Of a stretch of 13,828 nucleotides of DNA, positions 1,877 to 13,826 are shown piece by piece. The translations under genes and the position numbers were made by a program. The notes below the pieces were generated by a model that was not told the origin of the DNA, made no database searches, and worked only from the letters and a program-made list of their open reading frames with translations. Numbering within the stretch: position 1 is the stretch's first letter; every line of letters begins with the position of its first letter. The DNA is taken from the IMG/VR virus record IMGVR_UViG_2660238008_000004; one strand, written 5' to 3'. This stretch comes from a virus. Taxonomy: Duplodnaviria; Heunggongvirae; Uroviricota; Caudoviricetes; Autographiviridae.

Positions 1877-2330
1877 ATCCGTCATCAGTTCGGCGCTCGC
1901 TTGTTTCGGCTGCGCCGCGCTCGCTCTGCGTATCTAGCGATACTATATCACTATAGACACTTTCATAATTATCTATTGATATCAGTAACTTATATTTTTA
2001 ATTTTAAAGGCTACTAATAAGGAGATATAGAGCATTACTTTCCCGCTTTTGACCGACAAAAATCGCGCTGTTAAGTATTGCCAGCCCAGGCTCAGTAAGG
2101 CTTAGCGAGGTTGTGGTTAAAAATTGACCTAATGAAGGTATCTACTAAGGAGAAAGAATAACTCCCGAAGCGCGACAAACTCTCCGATTTTGAAAGTGAC
2201 TATTAAGGCAGATAAAGACACTGACACTGTTGCCGACATGAAAACCTCTATAAGGGCAGAGAGTCTGCCGCACCTGTACCACCGCCCCAACCTGAGCTAA
2301 TACCTACCCCTATTTTCTGGAGATTTCACC

Positions 2331-4175
2331 ATGCCAACAAACCTACGCCGCCTGCTTGCGCAGGCTGCCGACGCTGACCCGCTCAATACTGCGGACGCAG
2401 ATGTACAGCAAATGATCGCTGACGGGGTTGTTATTCGACGTTCCAAGATATGCCCCGTAAAGCGTAAGCCCGTTAAGGCGGCATACAACACAAAGACCGA
2501 AGAGTTTTATTACAATGCAGATGGCTCCGCGATGACCTTGCGGGAGTGGCGAACGCTGCACGGTGTTCAACCGAAGAAACAAAAACAGCGCTCTGACGCT
2601 GGGTTGCGGCAAGTCATCCAGCCCGGCGACGCGATTCACTGCCGACGCGCTGAGATTGAGCAATGGCTAAATAAAAAGCCTGCTCGTTATGTTGAACCAC
2701 TGCCGCCAGATTTCCCCGGCGTTCGCGTAGACGATGCCGCATTGAAACCGCGCGAGCACGCCGTGCCGGAATCAACAACCGGACAGAATGCTTTTCTCAA
2801 AGCCTGCCGCGAGTTTCTCATTTGCGATGAGAAGACCATGCGCCGAATTAACAGGGGCATGGGTAAACTGGAAGCGATGCGTAACGCAGATTTCAAACGC
2901 TACGGAGACTCAGGGGAGTTTCGTCAATTTTGGTGTGGAGAGTCGAAGCCTACCGAAGATAGATTTAATAATACAAATCATCATTGTGACCCGAACGGCT
3001 TGGCTGCTTCGCCGTCTGTGCCGCCACTGAATACTACGCCGTATGAGTTCCGCCCCCTGGCTCGCTGTGACCGAAACGCACGCGTTAGCCTGCTGCCACC
3101 TGATGGGCTGGAGTGGAGGCCGGGGCAATTGTCTGTTGCTGATGCGATCTTTTCCCGTGGCAGTGATGTGCTTGCCGTTCTGCCTACTGGGTATGGCAAA
3201 AGCGCTGCCTTCACTTACCCATTGATTTATGAATCCCGCGCTGGCGTTGGCCTGTCTGTTATCGTTGTTCCTACTAATACCCTTAAGCGTCAGATTCTCC
3301 GCCAGTTGCGGGAGGCTGGCGTTCACGCTGTGGCATTTGGTGACAAGCTGCCGAGGCACCGCAATGCGCAACAACTGGCGGGGCTGGCTGCCGGGGCGTT
3401 CCGGGTTGCAGTCGTTTCGCCTGAACATCTGGTTCCGTCGAGTCAGGTTCTCGCGGCGCTGATGGCTTATGGCGTTGATCGTTTTATTATCGATGAGGCA
3501 CACACGGTCAAAGACTGGGATTTCCGCCCAGCTTACGACGCAATGCAGCACACACTACAGAATGCCTTTCCTTCGGCTCAACGCTGCGTGTTTACGGCTA
3601 CGCTGCTACGCGAAAATGAGCGCAGTTTAATGGAGTCGCTTGGCTGCCGTGGCGATTACGTAACATTCCGCGCTGATGTTGCTCGCGAGAATATCCAGTT
3701 GACGCCAGTCAGACAGTGCCGCGAACGTTTCCGAGCGGCTATTGGTCTGGTCGAGGCTCTGCCGAAAGAAGAGAAGACGCTTATTCTCGTCAATGACCTT
3801 AAAACGTTGCGGGCGTACCTGAAACTCTTGGGCGACCGGGCGCGGCCATATCACTCGAAGACGATGCACCTGAGCAACGAGGAACGCCACGCAAACGCTG
3901 AGTGGTTTGCCTCTACGCCGGGCGCGATTCTTATTGCTACTAAAGCCTTCGGGCTGGGTGCTGATGTTCCTGATATCCGTAACGTTGTCGTGACATACGT
4001 CCCCGATGATTTGCCTGATCTCGTTCAGATGATTGGACGAGCCGGGCGCGATGGGGAACCTGCCCGCGCTTTTCTGCTGTGGTCATCGCTGGCGCTGGAT
4101 GTTGCGCCTGATGAGCTTGCTTACTTCTACCGCCCTGAAAACTGCAACTGGCAGTACATCGCTAAATACCTCTGA
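2331..4175 (+). CDS. RecQ-family (SF2) DNA helicase core with an unrecognised ~270-aa N-terminal extension; lacks RQC/HRDC C-terminal domains; 614 aa
   Basis: Walker A LPTGYGKS preceded by a motif-0-like segment (RPGQLSVADAIF); motif Ia IVVPTNTLKRQ; motif II with the RecQ signature IIDEAHTVKDWDFRPAY; motif III FTATL; motif VI MIGRAGRDG about 40 aa from the C-terminus. GGAG ribosome-binding site 8 nt upstream of ATG 2331. Confidence 0.85.
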   Translation: MPTNLRRLLAQAADADPLNTADADVQQMIADGVVIRRSKICPVKRKPVKAAYNTKTEEFYYNADGSAMTLREWRTLHGVQPKKQKQRSDAGLRQVIQPGDAIHCRRAEIEQWLNKKPARYVEPLPPDFPGVRVDDAALKPREHAVPESTTGQNAFLKACREFLICDEKTMRRINRGMGKLEAMRNADFKRYGDSGEFRQFWCGESKPTEDRFNNTNHHCDPNGLAASPSVPPLNTTPYEFRPLARCDRNARVSLLPPDGLEWRPGQLSVADAIFSRGSDVLAVLPTGYGKSAAFTYPLIYESRAGVGLSVIVVPTNTLKRQILRQLREAGVHAVAFGDKLPRHRNAQQLAGLAAGAFRVAVVSPEHLVPSSQVLAALMAYGVDRFIIDEAHTVKDWDFRPAYDAMQHTLQNAFPSAQRCVFTATLLRENERSLMESLGCRGDYVTFRADVARENIQLTPVRQCRERFRAAIGLVEALPKEEKTLILVNDLKTLRAYLKLLGDRARPYHSKTMHLSNEERHANAEWFASTPGAILIATKAFGLGADVPDIRNVVVTYVPDDLPDLVQMIGRAGRDGEPARAFLLWSSLALDVAPDELAYFYRPENCNWQYIAKYL

Positions 4176-4212
4176 GTCGAAAGGCTCTCCCTGATTCTCT
4201 GGAGTTAATCAT

Positions 4213-4650
4213 ATGCCTGTTACCGAACATGCGCAGCGTCGTGCTGCGCGTGCGGATGCGCTCATCACCGCACAACTAGCTTTCGCCCTGAATGGGTACA
4301 ACTGGGATGAACTGGCCGAACCTCATCGCAAGACCCTTAATCGTGAGGCCATCATTCGCGAGGTATTTACACCGCTGGAGCGATATTGCCTGCTGAATGA
4401 TTGCGAGCCGTGGGAGTGTCTGGCCGCTGTACTGAACCGCATGAAAAGGCCGGATGGCTCGCGTCGCTGGAAAGCCGTCCGGTTGTCCGACCGGGTTTTC
4501 AATGGCCGGGTGCATCCGGTACGCAAGACTCCTGATGAAGTTTACGCCGCCATTGCCCGCCGTTTGTTTCTGCCGAAGCCCGTGCATCAAGAAGTGATTC
4601 AGCACATCCGTGCGCTAGGCCTGTTACCAGTTGGAGATAACCACCAATGA
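4213..4650 (+). CDS. Hypothetical protein, 145 aa
   Basis: ORF with GGAG ribosome-binding site 8 nt upstream; co-directional with the helicase and 37 bp downstream of it; no recognisable motif. Confidence 0.6.
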   Translation: MPVTEHAQRRAARADALITAQLAFALNGYNWDELAEPHRKTLNREAIIREVFTPLERYCLLNDCEPWECLAAVLNRMKRPDGSRRWKAVRLSDRVFNGRVHPVRKTPDEVYAAIARRLFLPKPVHQEVIQHIRALGLLPVGDNHQ

Positions 4651-4856
4651 CGAAATCTGAATTTGAAGCCGGAGCATGGGAACTAAAAACCCTGCTGCTG
4701 GGTGCGTTGACGCGCAGGCTTAAGGAGGACGAGGCGGGAGAGTCACGCATGGCTGCTGCCGAGTTGTCATCCTGCGTGAACTTCCTCAAGCAGAACGCCG
4801 CCGACTCGCCTGATACAACCTTTAACAACGTGTTCCCGGAGGATGACGACCAATGA
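4647..4856 (+). CDS. Hypothetical small protein, 69 aa
   Basis: Start ATG overlaps the upstream stop (ATGA at 4647-4650), indicating translational coupling; GGAG 11 nt upstream. Confidence 0.5.
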   Translation: MTKSEFEAGAWELKTLLLGALTRRLKEDEAGESRMAAAELSSCVNFLKQNAADSPDTTFNNVFPEDDDQ

Positions 4857-5029
4857 CCCCTGAACAGTTCCGGCAATGGTTCGCCACGCTGCCGGAGAAA
4901 TATCAACGTGTAGTCCGCTTCATGTACGACAACGCCCGCAAGTCGGGCACACACACCGCGTCAAGCCTTGCGCTGATTCACACGTTGGTTACTGACCAGA
5001 TCAAATTTGATTCGGAGTTTAATTTATGA
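4853..5029 (+). CDS. Hypothetical small protein, 58 aa (below the ORF-track cutoff; MTPEQFRQWFATLPEKYQRVVRF...)
   Basis: Hand translation from ATG 4853, which overlaps the upstream stop (ATGA); GGAGG 11 nt upstream; its stop TGA 5027-5029 overlaps the next start ATG 5026. It fills an otherwise unexplained gap in a tightly packed operon. Confidence 0.45.
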   Translation: MTPEQFRQWFATLPEKYQRVVRFMYDNARKSGTHTASSLALIHTLVTDQIKFDSEFNL

Positions 5030-5589
5030 CTTTGAGTATTACCGATATCCAGCGCATTAACGCGCTGGCTCATAAGCACCTAAAGAACAATGAAGAGATT
5101 GCAGCGGAGACAGGTCATACCCTGACCGATATTGATGCAGTAATCCGTGGCGCCTATGTCGATGACTTGGCCGAACATTGGAAAGACGATGCTGATATTA
5201 ATCTGGCGGAGTACAACGCCATCCGCAGCCGCTATAAGCCCGGCAAGCTGCACCGCGATACAGAGTTTATGATTGCCCGCGATATGCTGATTCGCCCTGA
5301 GACGGTGCTGGCTATCGCCCATTCCCGCTTTAGCAACGCCCACACGCACCCGGTACAGAAACCCTTGAAGGTGAAGCCAGCGAAGCCGAAAGTAGTGCGC
5401 AAGTTAGTGCCTACTGATTTAGATGAAATCCACAAGTTAGAGCGCTTCGGTTGGCCTGCTGCGGAGATCGCCGGGAAGCTGGGCGTCCCTGTTGAGGTCG
5501 TCGCGCATGTGCAACGCTGCCTGAGAAATCGTTGGTCGTACCCGGATACTCTGGAGTCTGTTAACTCCAAATTCAGCGAGGCTGAATGA
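5026..5589 (+). CDS. Hypothetical protein, 187 aa, possible C-terminal HTH
   Basis: ORF translationally coupled to its upstream neighbour; C-terminal segment WPAAEIAGKLGVPVEVVAHVQRCL looks HTH-like (weak). Confidence 0.6.
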   Translation: MTLSITDIQRINALAHKHLKNNEEIAAETGHTLTDIDAVIRGAYVDDLAEHWKDDADINLAEYNAIRSRYKPGKLHRDTEFMIARDMLIRPETVLAIAHSRFSNAHTHPVQKPLKVKPAKPKVVRKLVPTDLDEIHKLERFGWPAAEIAGKLGVPVEVVAHVQRCLRNRWSYPDTLESVNSKFSEAE

Positions 5590-5822
5590 TGGCAGAGAAC
5601 GAACCGCTGCACCCCGCCGTTAACCCTGATCTCTACGTGAACCTTGACGAACAACGCGAAGGATACGCTCCGATTGAATCACGGGGTTGGGATGTGCTGA
5701 CGCAGAACCTGACCGGGAAAGGTCGAACTGACCCCAGCCAAACACTTAACCAGAATCCGAAACAACGCCCGCGCGGCTCCGTTGGTGAGCGTCGTTGGCT
5801 TCGTAAACGTGGATTACTTTAA
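5586..5822 (+). CDS. Hypothetical small protein, 78 aa
   Basis: ATGA start/stop overlap with the upstream gene; basic C-terminus. Confidence 0.5.
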   Translation: MMAENEPLHPAVNPDLYVNLDEQREGYAPIESRGWDVLTQNLTGKGRTDPSQTLNQNPKQRPRGSVGERRWLRKRGLL

Positions 5823-5834
5823 CGAGGAATTACC

Positions 5835-6074
5835 ATGAGCAAAACTATCGTATTGCTGCCGCCCCGCAAGAATACAGACTGGGCTGCACAATTAAAGCTG
5901 ATTTCTGAATCGCTTGAGGTGAGTCAGGCAGACCTCGCCCACGCCTATCAGGTTGATCGTCGGGATATGGGTAAAGCGTATCACGGTGTGCGCAAACTGC
6001 CGGAACGTTGTGTGCCTGTTCATATGCTGTTGTTAGCGCAGGTACACGACTTTAGAGCATTATCAGGAGAGTAA
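5835..6074 (+). CDS. Hypothetical small protein, 79 aa
   Basis: ORF with GAGG ribosome-binding site upstream of ATG 5835; no recognisable motif. Confidence 0.5.
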   Translation: MSKTIVLLPPRKNTDWAAQLKLISESLEVSQADLAHAYQVDRRDMGKAYHGVRKLPERCVPVHMLLLAQVHDFRALSGE

Positions 6075-6077
6075 TTT

Positions 6078-6758
6078 ATGTCTGACCAGAATGTTAATCC
6101 GTACCTTTCCGGTGCTGATGCTGCATCGCAGCAATCGCCATACATGGCTGCACCTGTTGGAGTTGACAATGGAGCATCCCGCTTTAGCTCTGCGCCTGCT
6201 GATGCTGATTTCCTCCGTACCCAACCCGTTAACGGCAATGATGGCGGACAATGGAATAATGGCAATATCGCAAATCAGCAAGACCAGAACGCTGACAGCG
6301 CTGGGGCGCAAGTGGGCGACACACTGCAATTACAGGATGGCACCACTGTTGAGTTGACTCCTGAACTTCATGGGCTGATGGGGCAGTTTCACCAGTCTGT
6401 CGAAAGCCAGCTAGGTCAGGGTACAGTTGACGCGATGTTGCAGTACGCTGGCACGCTCGACGCCGGGACGCAATCAACCCTTGAACGGATGGTCATGTCT
6501 GGCGATCCCGCGCAGATGTCGCGTGCGGTTCAGTATCTGCAAGAGCGTATGGCTGGCGGTTCCATTACCGGTTACGTCCCGAACGGCCAGACTGCCGCGC
6601 AACCTGTCGGAATGTCACATGCTGAGTTTATAGCAGCGTATGACCAGCTTTCGCAGTGGGCGCAGCAATCAGGGTATGGCCCCGGCCATCGCCAGTACGA
6701 TGAACAATACCGCGCTCTGGTTGCGCAGCGCTCCGCTGGCAAACGTGCTGGTCGCTAA
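6078..6758 (+). CDS. Hypothetical protein, 226 aa, with low-complexity Q/N/G/A/S/D-rich N-terminal ~100 aa and a predicted helical C-terminal half
   Basis: AGGAG ribosome-binding site upstream of ATG 6078; the compositional bias is visible in the translation. Possible scaffold or other virion-associated protein given the capsid-like gene downstream (speculative). Confidence 0.6.
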   Translation: MSDQNVNPYLSGADAASQQSPYMAAPVGVDNGASRFSSAPADADFLRTQPVNGNDGGQWNNGNIANQQDQNADSAGAQVGDTLQLQDGTTVELTPELHGLMGQFHQSVESQLGQGTVDAMLQYAGTLDAGTQSTLERMVMSGDPAQMSRAVQYLQERMAGGSITGYVPNGQTAAQPVGMSHAEFIAAYDQLSQWAQQSGYGPGHRQYDEQYRALVAQRSAGKRAGR

Positions 6759-6897
6759 CGCCCAACTGTGGAATGCGCCCTGCAAGACCGAGTGCGCACC
6801 GACCCGGTACTACCACACCAATCTATGCGCATGAGTCCCCGCAAGCCGCATTCTGCGCGGCATCTGAAAGCCTGTTTTTAATTAACCGAGGTTCGTA

Positions 6898-7311
6898 ATG
6901 AGTACCTGTAATTTCCATGCTGTGGAGCGTGTCGCTGACGTGCGCCCGGATTTCGCCTTGCCGCTGGGTAGATGTGATCATGTTTACCCTGAGCGTGTGC
7001 CGCACGTTTTCAATCCAGACGAAGCGGTTTATATCGTTGCACGGTCTGCCACATCCGGCACCCGCACATCTGGCGTTAGCCGTGGGCTTTCCCCTGTGCT
7101 GCCGCCGAAGATGGCCGAGCGGATGCGCGAACGTGAACGGCACGAGAAGAATCGAGCCAGACCCCGCAAGGTAATCACTGAGGCGATACGCGCTGACATT
7201 ATCGTTCGCTCTGCAAAAGGCCAGAAGAATCGTTACATTGCAAGCAAGGTTGGCGTGTCTGAAACCTCTGTGCGGAAGGTGTTGAACATGGCGCGTATGA
7301 GTGCGCACTAA
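6898..7311 (+). CDS. Putative DNA-binding protein with C-terminal HTH, 137 aa
   Basis: C-terminal IRADIIVRSAKGQKNRYIASKVGVSETSVRKVL resembles a resolvase/sigma-type HTH; GAGG ribosome-binding site upstream; the gene is isolated by 139-bp and 198-bp intergenic gaps. Confidence 0.55.
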   Translation: MSTCNFHAVERVADVRPDFALPLGRCDHVYPERVPHVFNPDEAVYIVARSATSGTRTSGVSRGLSPVLPPKMAERMRERERHEKNRARPRKVITEAIRADIIVRSAKGQKNRYIASKVGVSETSVRKVLNMARMSAH

Positions 7312-7425
7312 TGCAAGGTAATACGTTCGCCTTACTTCACGCGCACTAACCCCTGAGAACCGCGCCAGCTCTGGCCTCAAAACGCCCATTTCGGGGCACC
7401 TCATCCCTTTAATCGATACCGTTCT

Positions 7426-7450
7426 GAATCCTGCCTCGGCGGGAGGATTC
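7426..7450. promoter_or_regulatory. Inverted repeat GAATCCTgCC-(tcggc)-GGgAGGATTC about 60 bp upstream of the capsid-like gene
   Basis: 7-bp perfect arms (GAATCCT/AGGATTC) extended to 9 of 10; no T-run follows, so not a classic intrinsic terminator; candidate operator or RNA hairpin. Confidence 0.3.
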
Positions 7451-7509
7451 CGCACGTCTGTGCCATGACGATGGCGCGGGCTTCATCAACCTACGTAGGA
7501 GTTTTGTTT

Positions 7510-8505
7510 ATGGCTGATACTTCGTACAGTCCCGATCTGTTTCGCCCACATTATGGCGGGGTGGAATCCGACAATGATATTCACATCGAGGCTTATGACC
7601 GGGATGTCCAGACCCGTTTAGAGTCCAAATCCGTATTTCTGGCCGAGGGGCTGTCTACATACAGGCCGCTGAAAGGCAGCAACCAATACCGCATTGATCG
7701 CCTGAGTGGTGATCTTGAGGTGAAGGGCAGAACCGCAGGGCAATCGCTGGAGCCTACCGCCGTTAAGTCGGACAAGTTGGTTATCTCTGTGGATACGCTG
7801 AGTTATATCCGCGTCCCGATTGACTATCAGGACGATTGGACAGCACCCACATTTCGCGCAGAGCTGAGCCGCAATATCGGCACTGCGCACGCTAAGTTCT
7901 ACGACGAAGCGCACACCATCCAGTTAATCAAAGCGACTGACTTTGTACCGCCGCCGACACTGCAACCAACGTTTAACCCGCTTACGAATAACGTTGTCTC
8001 GCTCGACCTGACAGCGGGGAGCGAAGAGGACGCCGCAAACGAATTGGTTCACGCCGTCAAAGCGGCTGCTAATCGCTTCCTCACTGAGAAAGATATTCCG
8101 GTGGCCGAGCTGGTGCTTCTCATTGACCCTGCATGGTTCAGCATCCTGATGGAACATAAGAAGCTGATGAACGTCCGTTACAGCCGGGATAGTGGCAACG
8201 ATTACGCATGGCGTCGCGTTGGCTATGTCGCTGGGGTGCGAGTCATTGAGCTGAACAGTTACCCGCAGGAAGTCATTACCGGGCATGAACTGGGCGCTGA
8301 TTATGACGTTACCGCAGAGGAAGCGATGACGAGGGCGACGCTGTTTAAACCTTCCTCTGTGCTGCTGACGGTCGAAGCGCAGAGCGTCATCAATCGCCAG
8401 TGGGATGATGAACGCGAAATGACAATGGTGATGGACTCATATCGCCTGTTCAACGTTGGGCTGCGTCGTCCTGACTGCGTTATCAATTTCCGACAAGCTG
8501 CATAA
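7510..8505 (+). CDS. Hypothetical protein, 332 aa; possible HK97-fold major capsid protein (weak resemblance to T7 gp10-type capsid proteins)
   Basis: Strong AGGAG ribosome-binding site 8 nt upstream of ATG 7510 (preferred over the track start 7465, which has none). By-eye similarity to recalled T7 gp10 segments (KLVISVDTLSYIRVPIDYQDD versus KVITIDGLLTADVLIYDIEDA; LIDPAWFSIL versus CDPDSYSAIL; C-terminal GLRRPDCVINF versus GGLRPEAAGAVVF). The product call is tentative. Confidence 0.4.
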   Translation: MADTSYSPDLFRPHYGGVESDNDIHIEAYDRDVQTRLESKSVFLAEGLSTYRPLKGSNQYRIDRLSGDLEVKGRTAGQSLEPTAVKSDKLVISVDTLSYIRVPIDYQDDWTAPTFRAELSRNIGTAHAKFYDEAHTIQLIKATDFVPPPTLQPTFNPLTNNVVSLDLTAGSEEDAANELVHAVKAAANRFLTEKDIPVAELVLLIDPAWFSILMEHKKLMNVRYSRDSGNDYAWRRVGYVAGVRVIELNSYPQEVITGHELGADYDVTAEEAMTRATLFKPSSVLLTVEAQSVINRQWDDEREMTMVMDSYRLFNVGLRRPDCVINFRQAA

Positions 8506-8521
8506 CTGGAGGGGCTGAGTC

Positions 8522-9031
8522 ATGGTTAATGATGCTTACGCCCCTGAGCTGCTGTGTTCCCTTTTCCTGTATGACCCGGTGACAGGCCGCCTGCACCATA
8601 AAGCTAACCGACGCCGGGTTAAGGCTGGCTCCTATGCTGACTCCACCCGGCGAGCTGATGGCTATCGTCAAGTTGCCCTGCGACTTGATGGCAAGCAGTA
8701 CCAGCTAAAAGCCCATCGCGTGGCGTGGATTCTTGCGCATGGCGCTATTCCTCATGGTAAGCAGATCGATCACATCAACGGTATCCGTGACGACAATCGC
8801 CTATGCAATCTGCGCTTGGTTACGCAGCGGGAAAACGACCAGAACCGACGCAAGGCAAGGGGGTATAGCTGGAATAAGGGCTGTAGAAAATGGGAGGCTT
8901 ACATACGCGTTGATGGTGTACTCCGTCACCTTGGCTTATTTACTACCGAAGTGGCGGCGCGTGCTGCCTATCTAAAAGCTAAAGCCAGATGCCATCCCTC
9001 AACGCCAGCCGATTTATTGCAGGCTGCCTAA
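8522..9031 (+). CDS. HNH endonuclease (HNH_3-type) with C-terminal AP2-like DNA-binding domain, 169 aa
   Basis: Motif HRVAWILAHGAIPHGKQIDHINGIRDDNRLCNLRLVTQRENDQN (H-N-H with conserved asparagines) followed by KWEAYIRVDGVLRHLGLFTTEVAARAAY (AP2-like); GGAGG ribosome-binding site upstream of ATG 8522. Confidence 0.85.
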   Translation: MVNDAYAPELLCSLFLYDPVTGRLHHKANRRRVKAGSYADSTRRADGYRQVALRLDGKQYQLKAHRVAWILAHGAIPHGKQIDHINGIRDDNRLCNLRLVTQRENDQNRRKARGYSWNKGCRKWEAYIRVDGVLRHLGLFTTEVAARAAYLKAKARCHPSTPADLLQAA

Positions 9032-9049
9032 TCCTCGGAGGTTCCATTA

Positions 9050-9475
9050 ATGGCTGATGAAAAGCCGATTAGAGCGCTGGCAGATGATGACCCACGCCGC
9101 CAGCGGTACGCTGAACTGTTGGCGCAGGCTGGCCGCATGTCTATTCCCCGGCTGCATCCGGGCGATGCTAATAGTGTTATGAGTCAGCTTGCGACGATGC
9201 TTGGCGCACCTGTCCCGATAGTCGGTGCTATGACTGAGCACGCCGCTGCATGGCGTGTCTGTCTGCTGGATCAAGGGCTTGGCGATCTTCTGGATGGCTT
9301 GAGTAAGCAGGTGCTGACCGTCTTCTTTCTGCTTTGCTGGAGAGATAGCGCCTTGCGATTGGCAGGTAAGCAAAAGGAACGGCTTACAGCGGCCAGCGAG
9401 GGTTTGACCATTGAGCAATACCGGGCAATGCACCCGGCTTACAGAGAGGATAAAGAAGATGATAACCACAATTAA
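9050..9475 (+). CDS. Hypothetical protein, 141 aa (small-terminase-like role is only a positional guess)
   Basis: GGAGG ribosome-binding site 8 nt upstream of ATG 9050; no recognisable motif. Confidence 0.5.
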   Translation: MADEKPIRALADDDPRRQRYAELLAQAGRMSIPRLHPGDANSVMSQLATMLGAPVPIVGAMTEHAAAWRVCLLDQGLGDLLDGLSKQVLTVFFLLCWRDSALRLAGKQKERLTAASEGLTIEQYRAMHPAYREDKEDDNHN

Positions 9476-9758
9476 ATTAAGGTGGCGGTACATCGAGCCG
9501 CCGCCAATGACTGGCACACTTGCTTACCTGAAACAGTGGGTAATAGATACCGGAGAGCCTGAGCTTGAAGCTGAGTTTCGTAAGCTGCTGGGGCTAATGC
9601 GCCGCAATGGTATCAGTGACGAACGCGTTAATGCGTTGGCCGATGAGCTTTATGCTTTGGTACGCCAGCGCCAGTGCGAAGAATATGAAGCCTGCAAGCG
9701 GGCTTCATCTGACAATGGAGACTTTGAATCATGGTTACACGGACAGACCAGCTATTAA
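9459..9758 (+). CDS. Hypothetical protein, about 99 aa
   Basis: Start chosen at ATG 9459 (GAGAGGA upstream; overlaps the preceding gene by 17 nt) rather than the track start 9411; start position is uncertain. Confidence 0.4.
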   Translation: MITTIKLRWRYIEPPPMTGTLAYLKQWVIDTGEPELEAEFRKLLGLMRRNGISDERVNALADELYALVRQRQCEEYEACKRASSDNGDFESWLHGQTSY

Positions 9759-10159
9759 GAAAAGCTATGCGGGGCTATCTGGAACACCTTGGCAATATGC
9801 CACTGGCGGAACGGATTACAAACGCTGCTGCATTCGAAGATGTTTATCGCTTCCTGTTGAATGGTTCCGGGCGGCTGGAGTTGCGCCGCGCTGATGTGGC
9901 CGCTGTCCGTGTCTTCCTGTGGAATTATCAATACCGACGCTGTGCGGTGACAGGTAAGCCGCTGCGCCTTGCGTCTGCCGTGCTGGATCACTGCCACCGA
10001 ACCGGGCGCGTGCGTGCTGTGGTGCATCGCTCTGCTAATGCTGCTGAGGGTGGCTATTATGTAGGGCGGGTGTGTGGACTCTCACCCGGTAGCATGAATT
10101 TCATGCTACCAGCCTACCGCCGCCACTACAAGGGGCTGGGTATTATTTATCCAGCATAA
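9731..10159 (+). CDS. Endonuclease VII-like protein, 142 aa
   Basis: Segment CAVTGKPL...LDHCHRTGRVRAVVHRSANAAEG parallels the T4 endonuclease VII core (C-x2-C ... DHDH ... VRGLLCNLCNAAEG) recalled from memory, with several zinc-ligand cysteines replaced by His/Ser. Start 9731 overlaps the upstream gene by 28 nt. Confidence 0.55.
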   Translation: MVTRTDQLLRKAMRGYLEHLGNMPLAERITNAAAFEDVYRFLLNGSGRLELRRADVAAVRVFLWNYQYRRCAVTGKPLRLASAVLDHCHRTGRVRAVVHRSANAAEGGYYVGRVCGLSPGSMNFMLPAYRRHYKGLGIIYPA

Positions 10160-10246
10160 CATTGGTCATGGCTCTATTTATTTTATTTTCATGAGGTTAC
10201 ATGTTGCTGTGGCTGCCTATTTACTTGCTCGTATTTAAAACAATTC

Positions 10247-10275
10247 TTGACGGATTGATGTAGATTGCGTAATCT
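10247..10275 (+). promoter_or_regulatory. Sigma70-type promoter: -35 TTGACG (10247-10252), 17-bp spacer, -10 TAATCT (10270-10275), with AT-rich upstream tract
   Basis: Near-consensus hexamers with ideal spacing, about 60 bp upstream of the small ORF at 10337; seen directly. Confidence 0.5.
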
Positions 10276-10336
10276 CCACTTAAAATAACTGCCTACAATG
10301 TGTGCAGGCCAATCACCGAAAAACAGGAGGTACAAT

Positions 10337-10492
10337 ATGACAAAGGCGAAAATCAGCCCCGTATCGACTGGTATGAGTAGGGATGCTCTGAATGCTCTTA
10401 TCAAGACAACGCGTACTGTAGCGCGTAAAAGTTCCAGAGAAACTGATGAGCGTTTAGCTGAATACAGTAAAGTACATGCCGCTTGCAATTGA
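10337..10492 (+). CDS. Small basic protein, 51 aa; candidate antitoxin/partner of the downstream toxin-like gene
   Basis: Strong AGGAGG ribosome-binding site 6 nt upstream of ATG 10337; overlaps the downstream ORF by 17 nt; does not resemble YafN/Phd-type antitoxins as I recall them. Confidence 0.5.
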   Translation: MTKAKISPVSTGMSRDALNALIKTTRTVARKSSRETDERLAEYSKVHAACN

Positions 10493-10949
10493 GTTTGATT
10501 GCTGTGAAAAACTCGCCAATGATGGCGAGTTTCTTCCTTTTTATCAGGAGTTCTGTCGCTATAAGCAACTAAGTGCAGAGCATTCCCGCCCCCGATATTC
10601 CATCCAAAAACTTTTTGCATCTATTTCGCTGCTCTTTGGCAGAGATAGGGACAATGTTGATGAAGATAAGCCGTATCATCAGAAAAGAGAAGGTTTAACA
10701 CATCTACATGTGAGGCAGGAAGACAGTGTCTGGGAGGATGACAATGGGCATCCACTGGTACAATGGAAATGTAAAAGTAACAGCTATTTGATATATTCGT
10801 ATTTTGTATTCTCAGGTACAAGGCACTACTATATTGTTGATTTTATTGATCATGATGCCCATGCAAATTGGGACAATCAAGAAGCAATACAAATGTGGAT
10901 AGATGAAGCTAAACAATATCGAGAACGTATAACAGAAGCGGCTGCATAG
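10476..10949 (+). CDS. YafO-like toxin candidate (type II toxin family), 157 aa
   Basis: By-eye similarity to E. coli YafO recalled from memory: EFCRYKQ versus DFISYKR, LFGRDRDNVDED versus IFGRDALYDDSF, HLHV versus HIHL, and C-terminal HDAHANWDNQEAIQMWIDEA versus EPHKLARDNNQMHKIGKMAE. Poor own ribosome-binding site, consistent with coupling to the upstream small ORF. Confidence 0.45.
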   Translation: MPLAIEFDCCEKLANDGEFLPFYQEFCRYKQLSAEHSRPRYSIQKLFASISLLFGRDRDNVDEDKPYHQKREGLTHLHVRQEDSVWEDDNGHPLVQWKCKSNSYLIYSYFVFSGTRHYYIVDFIDHDAHANWDNQEAIQMWIDEAKQYRERITEAAA

Positions 10950-10977
10950 GAAGCCGATATTATTCGGCTTCTTCTCT
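10950..10977 (+). terminator. Hairpin GAAGCCG-(8 nt loop)-CGGCTTC followed by TTCTCT, immediately after the toxin-like gene stop
   Basis: 7-bp stem seen directly; the U-tract is weak (TTCTCT). It lies between convergent genes, 8 bp from the minus-strand integrase stop. Confidence 0.35.
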
Positions 10978-10984
10978 AAGCATT

Positions 10985-12193
10985 TCATTTAATTAATTCA
11001 TAATCTATTAATTCAATATACCGGCGCATCTCTAAAGGGGATGCTGCGTTTTTTGAATATGTCTTAAAACTCTCAGTGCTACCTCGTTCGTGGCCTACAA
11101 GCAGAGCGATCCTATCTTCTGGCACTTGAGCACGGTCGAGTTGTTGCACAAACGCATGGCGGAGTGAGTGAAACACTTTTCTCTCTGCGGCAAGTTCGCC
11201 AAGAGCTTTACGCTTTGCCCGTGTGAACTGCTGCGTATGCCACGTTGAGCGCTTCCCATCCGCCCGGTCTGTAATTGACGCGTGATTGAACAGAAAACCG
11301 CTATGTGTGGTTTTGAGCAATGATTTCACGAGGGGGATTAGCTTGCTGTGTACTGGGACGATTCGTGCCGCGCTCTTGGTCTTCCCCTCGGTGATCTCAA
11401 AGCACAAAACGCCCTCGATGGTTTTAATACTGCTCTCACGCAGCGTACATATTTCATTGATCCGCATACCGCTGTAAGCACCAATAGCCGTTACCGCCTT
11501 CATCTCGTCATCAAGCAAGGTATAGACCTTTGCCAGCTCTCCCGGTGCGAAGACTTCATAGCTGACCTTGCTGCTTTTTGCTTCGAGTGCATGACCACGC
11601 CAAGGGTTATCCTGTGGCGCATCGTGATAGCGATTGCGTGCCAAATCCCATATCTGCGCCAGTGCACTGATATAGTTCTGGATGGTTTGGGGCGCTCGCT
11701 CAGTTTTGAGTTTATCTAACCAGCCTGTAACTATGGTTCGGTTAATATCTCGCAACTGAACATCTTTCTTTTTCAGGTGGGTTAACAGCACCTCTACGGC
11801 TTTATTGGTCTTGGATAGCGTGGTTAGCTTTCGCTTCTCGCTGTATTGAAGCAGGTACAAATCACGCATTTTTAGCAAGGAAGGGCAAGCCTGAATCGAT
11901 GCACCAAACGATGCGGGGGCTTCCTTGGCGTACACACTGACACGGCGTAGCTCATCAATGATTTGGTCTACAGATGAGCCGCCTTGTGGCTTTAGCAGAT
12001 TCCGTAAGCGAGTCCATTCCAGAGCAATAGCATCGCGAAACAATCGCGCTTGCCGTATGTCTCGTGTCCCTGTGCTTTTCATAAAGTAGCGTTTCCCTTG
12101 GAACAGGTGACGCATATAGCTGGGGATAGCTATCCGCACGAGGTAATTCCCGCAGGGATCTAAAACTAGATAACGATCTCTCTTGAAACTCAT
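10985..12193 (-). CDS. Tyrosine recombinase / phage-type integrase, 402 aa
   Basis: Catalytic residues in conserved context: GMRINEI (Arg), HSLRHAF (His-x-x-Arg), LVGHERGSTESFKTYSK (His and Tyr nucleophile); N-terminal arm-binding-like region (GKRYFMKSTGTRD). Its 5' end lies 134 bp from the tRNA fragment. Confidence 0.9.
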   Translation of the reverse strand: MSFKRDRYLVLDPCGNYLVRIAIPSYMRHLFQGKRYFMKSTGTRDIRQARLFRDAIALEWTRLRNLLKPQGGSSVDQIIDELRRVSVYAKEAPASFGASIQACPSLLKMRDLYLLQYSEKRKLTTLSKTNKAVEVLLTHLKKKDVQLRDINRTIVTGWLDKLKTERAPQTIQNYISALAQIWDLARNRYHDAPQDNPWRGHALEAKSSKVSYEVFAPGELAKVYTLLDDEMKAVTAIGAYSGMRINEICTLRESSIKTIEGVLCFEITEGKTKSAARIVPVHSKLIPLVKSLLKTTHSGFLFNHASITDRADGKRSTWHTQQFTRAKRKALGELAAERKVFHSLRHAFVQQLDRAQVPEDRIALLVGHERGSTESFKTYSKNAASPLEMRRYIELIDYELIK

Positions 12194-12479: not shown

Positions 12480-12531
12480 GTGAGTATACTAATGAGTATA
12501 TTTGCCGATTCGATATTGCTTGTATACTCAC
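12480..12531. promoter_or_regulatory. Repeats in the integrase upstream region: GTGAGTATAC (12480-12489), TGAGTATA (12493-12500) and inverted GTATACTCAC (12522-12531)
   Basis: 10-bp inverted repeat with an extra direct copy, 27-78 bp upstream of the integrase start; candidate integrase arm-type sites or operator. Seen directly; function inferred. Confidence 0.4.
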
Positions 12532-12557
12532 GAGATACCAATGGAAGGAAGACCATT

Positions 12558-13826
12558 ATGGCCCTAACGGATACTAAAGTTCGCTCTGCGAAACCTGAGG
12601 AGAAAGAGTATTCACTTGTTGACGGCGACGGCATGTCCTTACTTGTAAAACCTGGCGGTTCAAAGTATTGGCGATTTCGTTTCCGTTTTGGCGGTAAACA
12701 ACATTTGATGGCGTTCGGCGTTTACCCGGATGTTTCACTGGCGGATGCGCGGAAGAAAAGGGAAGAGGCCAGAAAGCTGGTAGCTGCTGGTATCGATCCT
12801 CGTGAGCATAAGCGTGCTGTGAAAGAAGAGCAGGCGAAAGAGATTATTACTTTCGAGAAGGTTGCCAGAGAGTGGCTCGTAACCAACCAAAAATGGTCGG
12901 AAGATCATGCTAATCGTGTAAAAAAGAGCCTGAAGGACAATATCTTCCCGGCAATTGGTGCTCGCAATATTGCTGAACTGGGCACCCGCGATCTGTTAAT
13001 TCCTATTAAAGCCGTGGAGAAATCCGGACGTCTTGAAGTGGCTTCCCGCCTTCAACAGCGCACCACGGCCATCATGCGTTATGCAGTGCAAAGCGGGTTA
13101 ATTGATTACAATCCGGCGCAAGAGATGGCGGGGGCGGTTGCTTCCAGTAATCGACAGCATCGTCCGGCGCTGGAGTTAAAGCGTATCCCGGAATTACTCC
13201 AGAAAATCGATGAATACACCGGCAGGCCACTAACCCGCTGGGCAACCGAACTTACTCTGCTTATTTTTATTCGATCCAGTGAGCTGCGTTTTGCTCGCTG
13301 GTCAGAAATCGATTTTGAAACGTCAATGTGGACCATCCCGCCTGAGCGAGAACCTATTCCCGGTGTGAAACATTCTCAGCGAGGTTCAAAGATGCGCACA
13401 CCTCATCTGGTGCCGCTTTCAAAGCAGGCGCTAGCGATCCTGAAGCAGATAAAACAGTTCTGTGGCGAACATGAACTGATTTTTATTGGCGATCACGATC
13501 CACGTAAGCCCATGAGCGAGAACACGGTAAACAGTGCGCTACGGGTGATGGGTTATGACACTAAGGTTGAAGTTTGCGGCCACGGCTTCCGCACAATGGC
13601 CTGTAGTTCGTTAATTGAGTCAGGACTATGGTCGAAGGATGCGGTGGAAAGGCAGATGAGCCATATGGAACGCAATTCGGTGAGGGCGGCGTATATCCAT
13701 AAAGCGGAACATCTGGATGAGCGTAAACTGATGTTGCAGTGGTGGGCTGATTTTCTGGATGCGAACAGAGAGAAGAGTATCAGTCCGTTTGAATATGCAA
13801 AGGTTAACAATCCGCTGAGAAGGTGA
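12558..13826 (+). CDS. P4-family tyrosine integrase, 422 aa; stop codon at 13824-13826, two bases before the window end
   Basis: N-terminus MALTDTKVRSAKPEEKEYSLVDGDGMSLLVKPGGSKYWRFRFRFGGKQ is the characteristic P4-type integrase arm-binding domain; C-terminal catalytic region (HGFRTMACS, RQMSHMERNSVRAAY). Start chosen at ATG 12558 with AAGGAAG ribosome-binding site rather than track start 12480. Orientation matches the tRNA fragment, as in tRNA-then-int islands. Confidence 0.9.
   Translation: MALTDTKVRSAKPEEKEYSLVDGDGMSLLVKPGGSKYWRFRFRFGGKQHLMAFGVYPDVSLADARKKREEARKLVAAGIDPREHKRAVKEEQAKEIITFEKVAREWLVTNQKWSEDHANRVKKSLKDNIFPAIGARNIAELGTRDLLIPIKAVEKSGRLEVASRLQQRTTAIMRYAVQSGLIDYNPAQEMAGAVASSNRQHRPALELKRIPELLQKIDEYTGRPLTRWATELTLLIFIRSSELRFARWSEIDFETSMWTIPPEREPIPGVKHSQRGSKMRTPHLVPLSKQALAILKQIKQFCGEHELIFIGDHDPRKPMSENTVNSALRVMGYDTKVEVCGHGFRTMACSSLIESGLWSKDAVERQMSHMERNSVRAAYIHKAEHLDERKLMLQWWADFLDANREKSISPFEYAKVNNPLRR

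Follow-up and report, generated by a model that had tools for sequence, protein, structure and literature searches.

An orphan helix-turn-helix gene and a conserved capsid-leader palindrome in an integrative island resembling a podophage satellite

The DNA analysed here, IMG/VR record IMGVR_UViG_2660238008_000004 (13,828 nucleotides (nt) in its entirety, hereafter the window), is, as far as its sequence indicates, an integrative element resembling a satellite of the Bonnellvirus-like podophages, members of the phiKMV supergroup which encode their own RNA polymerase. Directly before its major capsid protein gene, this island carries a gene for a 137-amino-acid (aa) predicted helix-turn-helix (HTH) protein, which is flanked on both sides by untranslated gaps, the second of which holds a conserved palindrome (HP1). 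An orphan DNA-binding gene with structured leaders thus appears to lie inside a podophage-type satellite that encodes its own capsid. The joint reading favoured here, to which a probability of roughly 40% is assigned, is that of a podophage-type satellite with an exchangeable slot for HTH regulators, in which HP1 is an RNA stem-loop of the capsid leader. The features central to this reading are the following.

6759 to 6897, + strand: upstream intergenic region (IGR1), diversity 0.023
6898 to 7311, + strand: HTH protein gene, 137 aa, ATG start; recognised by its open reading frame (ORF), a GAGG at 6888-6891 and purifying selection
7312 to 7509, + strand: downstream intergenic region (IGR2), the capsid leader; characterised by its diversity profile and composition
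7426 to 7450, + strand: palindrome HP1, 9-pair stem and 5-nt loop, 60 nt upstream of the capsid ATG
7460 to 7477, + strand: second leader hairpin HP2, GTGCCAT-GACG-ATGGCGC; recognised by pairing in relatives
7510 to 8505, + strand: major capsid protein gene of the T7 gp10/phiKMV type (phrog_267, E = 6e-70)

The + strand gene cluster, which opens with a helicase gene, spans 2331-10159. The HTH gene is separated by 139 nt from the preceding gene, which ends at 6758, and by 198 nt from the capsid gene starting at 7510, while all other junctions in the cluster are 37 nt or shorter or overlap, in agreement with the initial annotation of this DNA, which had singled it out as the only gene of the cluster isolated on both sides. 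Every member of the HTH family whose context was examined is located between scaffold-like and capsid genes, with gaps on both sides. In the two phages compared, the scaffold and capsid genes are only 20 nt apart, and the island slot is inserted between such genes. In other islands the slot is filled by an unrelated 115-aa protein (phrog_21723) without a detectable HTH, a homologue of which is encoded in Aeromonas phage 56 by the second gene of the rightward early operon, before the replication initiator and thus in a cII-like position. Because of this position the slot looks like the place of a regulator, and a regulator beside the capsid gene is a reasonable reading. The initial annotation had seen here the layout of a late-gene regulator with its operator at an early/late boundary; of this, the idea of an HTH protein occupying a regulator slot ahead of the capsid gene is supported, but neither the operator nor the boundary is. 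As to the boundary, the gene lies within the head module, and matches to helper-type promoters occur only some 5 kb upstream.

That the HTH gene is real, as initially proposed, is supported by its diversity at codon positions one, two and three (0.009, 0.022 and 0.062, respectively, among 13 distinct close island variants); third positions are three to seven times more variable than first and second positions, indicative of purifying selection. The PGAP annotation of a 99.8% identical E. coli copy gives the same gene boundaries; a copy of this identity is carried by strain OkiPb01685. In the AlphaFold model, residues 1-64 are predicted to be disordered (predicted local distance difference test score, pLDDT, below 50), and are followed by a basic long helix (residues 70-86), an arm with the sequence RARPRK and a confident three-helix HTH (residues 95-136, with pLDDT values of 84-94 over residues 91-130). 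Pfam HTH_23 (PF13384) matches residues 94-130 with 20.4 bits (E = 4e-4), below its gathering cut-off of 24.6, while HTH_36, GntR, GerE and HTH_28 score lower than HTH_23. It is these sub-threshold matches together with the confident three-helix bundle on which the HTH call is based. The disordered N-terminal half carries two conserved motifs, FHAVERVADVRPDFALPLG and IVARSATS..GVSRGL. The N-terminal motif (F/Y)HAVE(R/A)V(A/V)DV(R/K)P(D/E)(F/Y)ALPL and the C-terminal HTH are common to the members of the family, which are 137, 178, 184, 200 and 220 aa in length and vary in their middle region and in the residues of the recognition helix (ETSVRKV, KSSVNTV, KGTVQRI and QSTVCAV among the HTH types).

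Searches for remote homology in Pfam, PHROGs, NCBIfam, PDB profiles, two Foldseek libraries and 1.8 billion representatives revealed only generic HTH similarity. Twelve proteins with E <=0.001 occur in a collection of 5.8 billion sequences; among 1.84 billion representatives there were likewise 12 matches, of which the best five (E <=1e-10) clearly belong to the family, while the weaker ones that were examined are unrelated HTH proteins. No homologue of the 137-aa protein was found in 50,697 phage records. Judging from these comparisons, the HTH protein family is restricted to this island family, and the structural model suggests DNA-binding proteins peculiar to this family, in which a disordered N-terminal half bearing the motifs is joined to a basic arm and an HTH at the C-terminus.

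The long helix, basic arm and three-helix HTH are shared with serine recombinases (Hin, Pin, and the gamma-delta and Tn3 resolvases) and with LuxR/NarL HTH proteins, and the best Foldseek matches of the protein are to ChrA and NarL-type regulators, resolvase-DNA complexes and the phage protein PinR, all with E >=0.025. Unlike the serine recombinases and NarL, however, the HTH protein has no catalytic or receiver domain and its N-terminal half is unique to the family. A role as a serine recombinase was consequently rejected, since only the C-terminal HTH region resembles resolvases and residues 1-64 are predicted to be disordered. The protein is also like the Mor/C activators of phage Mu in being small, with a C-terminal HTH, and in its placement before late genes; residues 88-133 match positions 92-121 of the 133 positions of the phrog_836 profile (E = 0.003) and a structural match is annotated as 'middle operon regulator' (E = 0.05). 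The Mor/C match, however, covers the HTH only, leaving the N-terminal dimerisation domain unmatched, and Pfam Mor is not matched.

The gaps on either side of the HTH gene show the degree of conservation seen at non-synonymous sites. In IGR2, diversity amounts to 0.010-0.020 across 7312-7450 and reaches 0.06-0.08 between about 7459 and 7509, compared with 0.06-0.14 at the third codon positions of the neighbouring genes. The diversity of the gaps equals that of first and second codon positions, and constraint is relaxed only in the final 50 nt ahead of the capsid ATG. By this measure of sequence diversity both gaps are constrained and are not simple spacers.

The inverted repeat that had been noticed at 7426-7450 is present as GAATCCTgCC-TCGGC-GGgAGGATTC, with nine of ten possible pairs and a folding energy of -15.5 kcal/mol (z = -2.0; 9/200 shuffled sequences fold as well). 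It is the sole match to its pattern in the window at up to three mismatches, but as 0.49 such matches are expected by chance, HP1 is by sequence alone only weakly beyond chance. It is its conservation that makes HP1 real. The core AATCCTGC(C/T)-loop-GGGAGGA(T/A)T occurs in 18/18 distinct variants from E. coli, Enterobacter, Kluyvera, Cronobacter and gut metagenomes, all spanning from 30 nt upstream of the HP1 loop into the start of the capsid gene. In these the left arm, TGAATCCTGC, is invariant, while the right arm reads GGGAGGATTC, -ATTA, -ATTT or -AATC. In a 12-sequence alignment six of the nine pairs never vary and none is altered on both sides; the outermost G-C pair is mismatched in six and replaced by G-U in two of the sequences.

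The downstream gap is a mosaic between islands. The block common to otherwise different downstream gaps starts exactly at HP1 and runs to the capsid ATG, and the islands recombine just upstream of HP1. Going by the recombination boundaries, it is the capsid leader and not the HTH gene to which HP1 is attached. The same core adjoins four HTH types, which are 36-81% identical to the window protein and have differing recognition helices. HP1 is found only in islands carrying a gene of the HTH family; islands with the 115-aa gene have a different leader, and the other two capsid-leader types have a hairpin of their own beside the ribosome-binding site. The most divergent family member, island L020, has another capsid leader and no HP1. 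Simple scans identified no sigma-70-like promoter in either gap and no intrinsic terminator on the + strand in 6000-8600, nor is there a T-run after 7450.

These observations bear on the operator proposed in the initial annotation. Worked out in full, that proposal would have the HTH protein control late genes by binding GAATCCT..AGGATTC as a dimer, thereby turning the capsid gene on or off. The confinement of HP1 to islands with an HTH-family gene would fit this proposal, although linkage explains the co-occurrence equally well, and conservation of the HP1 sequence extends to its loop and exceeds what a stem by itself would demand, alongside a protein with a confidently modelled HTH. On the other hand, an identical core beside such different recognition helices, the missing palindrome in L020, the single copy and the lack of a promoter match nearby are difficult to reconcile with an operator of this protein, and the centres of the 7-bp arms are 18 bp apart, or about 1.7 helical turns, which by its geometry would present the half-sites on different faces of the DNA. 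The operator is thus considered unlikely, and HP1 is not retained as such.

HP1 is instead interpreted, with moderate confidence, as an RNA stem-loop of the capsid leader which affects stability, processing or translation. By analogy with phages that encode a single-subunit RNA polymerase, the + strand cluster, including the HTH and capsid genes, would be read by the polymerase of the helper from a promoter-like motif at 2190, and HP1 would act on the resulting transcript as a stem-loop, together with HP2, making the capsid message more stable, marking a site at which it is processed or setting its translation. The HTH protein, in turn, would regulate head-gene expression, either on the island or on the helper. 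In the late mRNAs of T7, a leader stem-loop and ribonuclease III sites serve such roles. The island resembles the T7 gene 10 leader with its stem-loop and ribonuclease III sites in having a stem-loop in an untranslated capsid leader, as part of a T7-supergroup head module, and, as in T7, its cluster is probably read by a single-subunit polymerase. Unlike the T7 gene 10 leader, the island stem has only 9-13 pairs and shows no covariation, and there is no sequence similarity between the two. In HP2, 91.7% of the alignment cells are paired and most substitutions are G-C/U-G/G-U swaps which keep the pair, although none is changed on both sides; the changes in the outer pair of HP1 and in HP2 include G-U-compatible transitions. 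Further downstream, the capsid ribosome-binding site TAGGAG (7496-7501) is overlapped by a perfect 10-bp palindrome, CCTACGTAGG, at 7490-7499, which in some islands reads ACATATGTAGG with loss of the symmetry. An alternative capsid start at the in-frame ATG at 7465, which would add an N-terminal extension of 15 codons, was rejected as relatives have frame-breaking indels or a stop before 7510.

Sequence alignment further indicates that each gap holds a diverged copy of one repeated element, of which the following parts are found in the window.

6792 to 6832, + strand: candidate stem GTGCGCA (6792-6798)/TGCGCAT (6826-6832), with a 27-nt loop containing ACCCGGTA
6845 to 6861, + strand: GC hairpin, the IGR1 copy of the element hairpin, followed by ATCTGAAAGCCTGTTTTT and a T-run at 6875-6879
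7300 to 7395, + strand: second copy of the element; recognised by repeat analysis and homology to both gaps of island L018

In islands L018 and L021 the upstream gap aligns with the first part of the downstream gap (z = 14.5 and 10, respectively). The 3' part of the window IGR1 aligns with IGR1 of the Cronobacter island L018 (z = 16), and the window IGR2 with both L018 gaps, IGR1 and IGR2 (z = 13.5 and 23). The element consists of a short stem with a 26-34-nt loop, followed by CACTAACCCCTGAGAACC, a small GC hairpin and (A/G)AAAGCC(T/A)GTTT. In the second copy these parts are represented by the stem AGTGCGC (7300-7306, overlapping the end of the HTH gene)/GCGCACT (7341-7347), CACTAACCCCTGAGAACC, GCCAGCTCTGGC (7364-7375) and AAAACGCCCATTTCGGGG. 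The GC hairpin reported initially at 6845-6861 was recovered as GCCGC-ATTCTGC-GCGGC, with a 5-bp stem and a 7-nt loop. At -9.5 kcal/mol (z = -1.2) it is unremarkable alone, but it has counterparts in CCGCA-N5-TGCGG of the L018 IGR1 and in GCCAGCTCTGGC of the window IGR2. The T-run begins 14 nt after its stem, where the terminator scan made no call.

The outer stems are unrelated in sequence between islands (GTGCGCA/TGCGCAT, CTGATACA/TGTATCAG, TGGTCCA/TGGACCA, ATCGATCA/TGATCGAT and TGGACA/TGTCCA). In island L037 the double change A6798T and T6826A retains the pair in the stem at 6792-6832. With this one double substitution and a consistent register in its support, the stem structure of the element is suggestive only. 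The 8-bp palindrome GTGCGCAC occurs in the 13.8 kb at 6792 and 7301 only (about 0.2 occurrences expected), that is, 106 nt upstream of the HTH start codon and just before the HTH stop codon. Exact-pattern scans of IMG/VR gave four chance hits for the element loop, one for the start of the downstream gap and none for the palindrome, all five in unrelated contigs.

In L020, a 599-nt gap before the capsid gene (1076-1674) contains an unannotated HNH-like frame flanked by two copies of the element. In the recombinant island L045, the upstream gap of the window and the first ~18 codons of the HTH gene are joined to the 200-aa HTH type and its downstream gap, and the conserved N-terminal motif of the protein coincides with a crossover point. 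The downstream gap of L041 is a three-part mosaic. The inserted copy in L020, the L045 recombinant and the mosaic gap of L041 suggest, at the level of sequence, that the repeated elements are cassette boundaries. The notion that the element stems are operators which co-vary with the HTH type was rejected, as it is contradicted by L045; each stem alone is also within chance.

A further alternative is that the HTH protein acts on the helper, for example by shutting down the helper scaffold and capsid genes while the island supplies the capsid. A precedent exists in CapR, a protein of PLE (an element akin to the phage-inducible chromosomal islands), which represses the capsid operon of phage ICP1 (PMC8096241). 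The HTH protein is like CapR in being a satellite-encoded predicted DNA-binding protein linked to capsid supply, but CapR is derived from a homing endonuclease (PMC8096241) and no homology between the two is seen here. Action on the helper would be consistent with the HTH gene adjoining the island capsid gene, with no island site having been found that co-varies with the HTH type, and with the recognition helix and middle region diversifying between islands, as expected with different helpers. The candidate motifs GTGCGCAC and TGCGCA are, however, not enriched in the Bonnellvirus Lidtsur, which may not be the true helper. This alternative is also regarded as improbable.

A different role for the gaps themselves would be that of insulators, in which C-rich untranslated sequence terminates read-through by the host polymerase in uninfected cells, whether through Rho-dependent termination or weak hairpins, while the single-subunit polymerase of the helper would ignore the gaps. 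The first 114 nt of IGR2 (7312-7425) are C-rich and G-poor (C/G about 2), with the 78-nt windows starting at 7310-7360 among those with the greatest excess of C over G in the window, and the helicase leader is similar in composition. The upstream element of L018, in which GGCTTCCGAAAGCC is followed by TGTTTTT, is terminator-like, and constraint along the whole length of the gaps would likewise be expected of an insulator. Against this, the + strand carries no canonical intrinsic terminator, a composition resembling Rho utilisation sites is a heuristic only and the invariant HP1 core is left unexplained, so that insulation is judged quite unlikely.

The case for transcription by the helper polymerase centres on a block conserved directly 3' of the polymerase gene in six Bonnellviruses, ATGAAAGT(G/A)(A/T)CT(A/G)(T/A)AG. 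Two copies of this motif are found in the window.

1945 to 1966, - strand: motif copy ATGAAAGTGTCTATAGTGATAT, pointing leftward; 22 nt identical to phages LF82-23 and aldrigsur
2190 to 2205, + strand: motif copy TTGAAAGTGACTATTA; its 13-mer TGAAAGTGACTAT is identical to phages RZ4 and forsur

The window contains the Bonnellvirus-type motif at these two places only, and none was found within three mismatches in 6759-7509. The two copies are divergent and located about 5 kb upstream of the HTH gene, with the copy at 2190-2205 lying 125 nt upstream of the helicase gene. Other islands, among them L018 and L004, carry variant versions of the motif at the corresponding two positions, as though adapted to different helpers. 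In Lidtsur, six matches to the motif were observed where 1.35 were expected (0/100 shuffles reach six), and the three best, with up to three mismatches each, are all intergenic, one of them antisense near the genome end. Validated promoters of phages KP34 and LUZ19 are located directly behind the polymerase gene (PMC6834552, PMC10914365). Because the distribution in Lidtsur mirrors that of these validated promoters, the motif is, by analogy, probably the promoter of the helper's single-subunit polymerase.

Other promoter candidates were discarded. Three island types have the sequence ACCCTGTA in the loops of their repeated element, and it is found once more behind the polymerase gene of Lidtsur. 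Five other Bonnellviruses, whose conserved block is just upstream of this position, do not retain it, and the match is attributed to coincidence. Nothing similar to the published promoters of KP34 (TAATGTTACAGGAGTA) and LUZ19 occurs in either gap. A generic search for repeated promoter-like sequences in Lidtsur yielded nothing useful, and a likeness of the gaps to the hairpin-plus-motif region at Lidtsur 5965-6032, seen by eye, was not significant. The sequence AGCCTATAGCGTCCTACGGGGCGCTATGTGAA, proposed in 2015 as a promoter of the KP34 group of phages (PMC4411677), is present in the first intergenic region of Lidtsur (L016; 394-529) and absent from the island.

Between the two motif copies is an AT-rich stretch (window 1967-2270), from which four CTAnTAAGGnAGA-like repeats (~2012-2030, 2140-2158, 2198-2215 and 2246-2262) extend into the helicase leader. 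The primary origin of T7 has a layout of promoter plus AT-rich sequence. By analogy, window 1967-2270 resembles this origin and may be a helper-activated origin of replication. These iteron-like repeats were rejected as a target of the HTH protein, as they hardly differ in islands that carry three other HTH types.

Copies of the island are present in 58/5,426 complete E. coli genomes, one per genome, including that of strain E2348/69, and relatives occur in Enterobacter, Kluyvera, Kosakonia, Trabulsiella, Cronobacter and gut metagenomes. The conserved gene order comprises a serine recombinase, the DEAD-box helicase, six small ORFs, a 226-aa Q/G-rich protein, the slot gene and the capsid gene, followed by an HNH endonuclease, two small ORFs, an endonuclease VII, variable cargo and a tyrosine integrase on the opposite strand. 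By its gene content the island has the attributes of a satellite, namely an integrase and helper-related morphogenesis genes on an element too small for a phage. Comparisons of the window proteins with protein families and phage proteins identified no portal, protease, head-tail connector, tail or large terminase genes. Besides the capsid gene, the genes relevant here are the following.

4647 to 4856, + strand: 69-aa small-terminase-like ORF; similarity to the Lidtsur terminase small subunit
6078 to 6758, + strand: 226-aa Q/G-rich protein, weakly scaffold-like; weak collinear alignment with phage scaffolds
10985 to 12193, - strand: tyrosine integrase; recognised by gene content

The capsid protein is 56% identical to those of Bonnellviruses (Lidtsur, forsur and others) over residues 1-324, its whole length. 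The 226-aa protein aligns collinearly, to the very C-terminus, with the scaffolds of Lidtsur (E = 0.93) and of a podophage contig from a Methylotenera bin (E = 0.01), which are 301 and 411 aa in length and, in both phages, are followed 20 nt downstream by the capsid gene. As a tblastn search of the phage collection with the 226-aa protein gave no match, it is designated scaffold-like, from its sequence, with low confidence only; it possibly represents a scaffold reduced in length, which could give rise to smaller heads. The 69-aa ORF is similar to the N-terminal and central portion of the small terminase of Bonnellviruses, with 48% identity to residues 11-54 of the Lidtsur protein over 44 columns (pairwise E = 4e-6), and weakly matches PF11123 and phrog_891.

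Satellites of the phage-inducible chromosomal island (PICI) type often carry their own small terminase near the head genes. The initial annotation had offered a small terminase as an alternative identity for the HTH protein, and a packaging-specificity factor of this kind (a small terminase or its partner), with the flanking repeats or the palindrome as packaging site, would suit a predicted DNA-binding protein in the head module and the repeated elements as conserved non-coding DNA, but is very unlikely, as the protein shows no similarity to terminase families, which is seen instead in ORF 4647-4856, has no homologue in the phage records and shares its slot with an unrelated protein without a detectable HTH.

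Among the remaining genes of the window, an HNH_3 endonuclease gene (8522-9031) is directly 3' of the capsid gene, and an endonuclease VII-like gene (9731-10159), weakly matched by the Lidtsur endonuclease VII (E = 3e-4), is the last of the cluster. The stretch between the latter and the integrase (10160-10985) is variable cargo, which in the window encodes a YafO-family toxin, in L003 an AbiTii-domain protein, in L002 a DUF3606 protein and an unknown ORF, and in L004 and L005 one unnamed ORF each; it looks like a defence or toxin hotspot. Two tyrosine integrase genes are arranged back to back, at 10985-12193 (- strand) and 12480-13826 (+ strand), and in L001 genes for a kinase and a HerA helicase follow the second one. 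The second integrase probably belongs to a neighbouring element, and the back-to-back arrangement suggests tandem islands at one site. No tRNA or transfer-messenger RNA gene was detected in the whole window.

In several respects the island is like capsid-forming PICIs (cf-PICIs), P4, PLE and the Staphylococcus aureus pathogenicity islands (SaPIs). It is chromosomally integrated and roughly satellite-sized (~10 kb from the promoter-like motifs to the integrase), has an integrase, a helicase presumed to serve replication, head genes of phage origin and a small-terminase-like gene, and harbours variable cargo with toxin or abortive-infection genes. Unlike these satellites, its head genes are of the T7/phiKMV podophage type, its nearest phages are virulent and it carries promoter-like motifs of the helper type. 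A search of a library of papers found no description of such an island family, which is not proof that the family is undescribed. A more specific proposal, advanced tentatively and considered doubtful as a whole, is that of an undescribed satellite family of virulent T7-supergroup (Bonnellvirus-like) coliphages, which would be switched on by the helper polymerase through captured promoters and would use a capsid of their own and a shortened scaffold to build or remodel heads. The slot would then hold a helper-specific DNA-binding protein tuning the head genes of the helper or the island, and the repeated structured elements would be the boundaries for its exchange.

A number of observations weigh against the joint reading. 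The stem of HP1 shows no compensatory change, and its invariant core would fit a protein-binding site equally well. The folding z of HP1 is only about -2 and that of the whole 198-nt gap -0.27, and the covariance models of Rfam 15 gave no match at E <=1 over the whole window. Taken one at a time, the stems of the element are within chance in a shuffle test (P = 0.01-0.8). As L045 combines another HTH type with the upstream gap of the window, autoregulation through the upstream element is unsupported. It is only by analogy that the Bonnellvirus motif is read as a promoter, and satellite behaviour, that is, induction and packaging, is deduced from gene content alone.

Taken alone, an orphan HTH gene and a leader hairpin are a modest finding. 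If the island is indeed a satellite of virulent T7-like coliphages, however, capsid-encoding satellites would extend to podophage helpers with an RNA polymerase of their own, and the logic of induction would be simple, with captured promoters being read by the helper polymerase. Since E2348/69, a well-studied strain, harbours the island and Bonnellviruses grow on laboratory E. coli, direct tests are possible. The slot before the capsid gene would, in that case, be where helper-specific control is encoded and exchanged.

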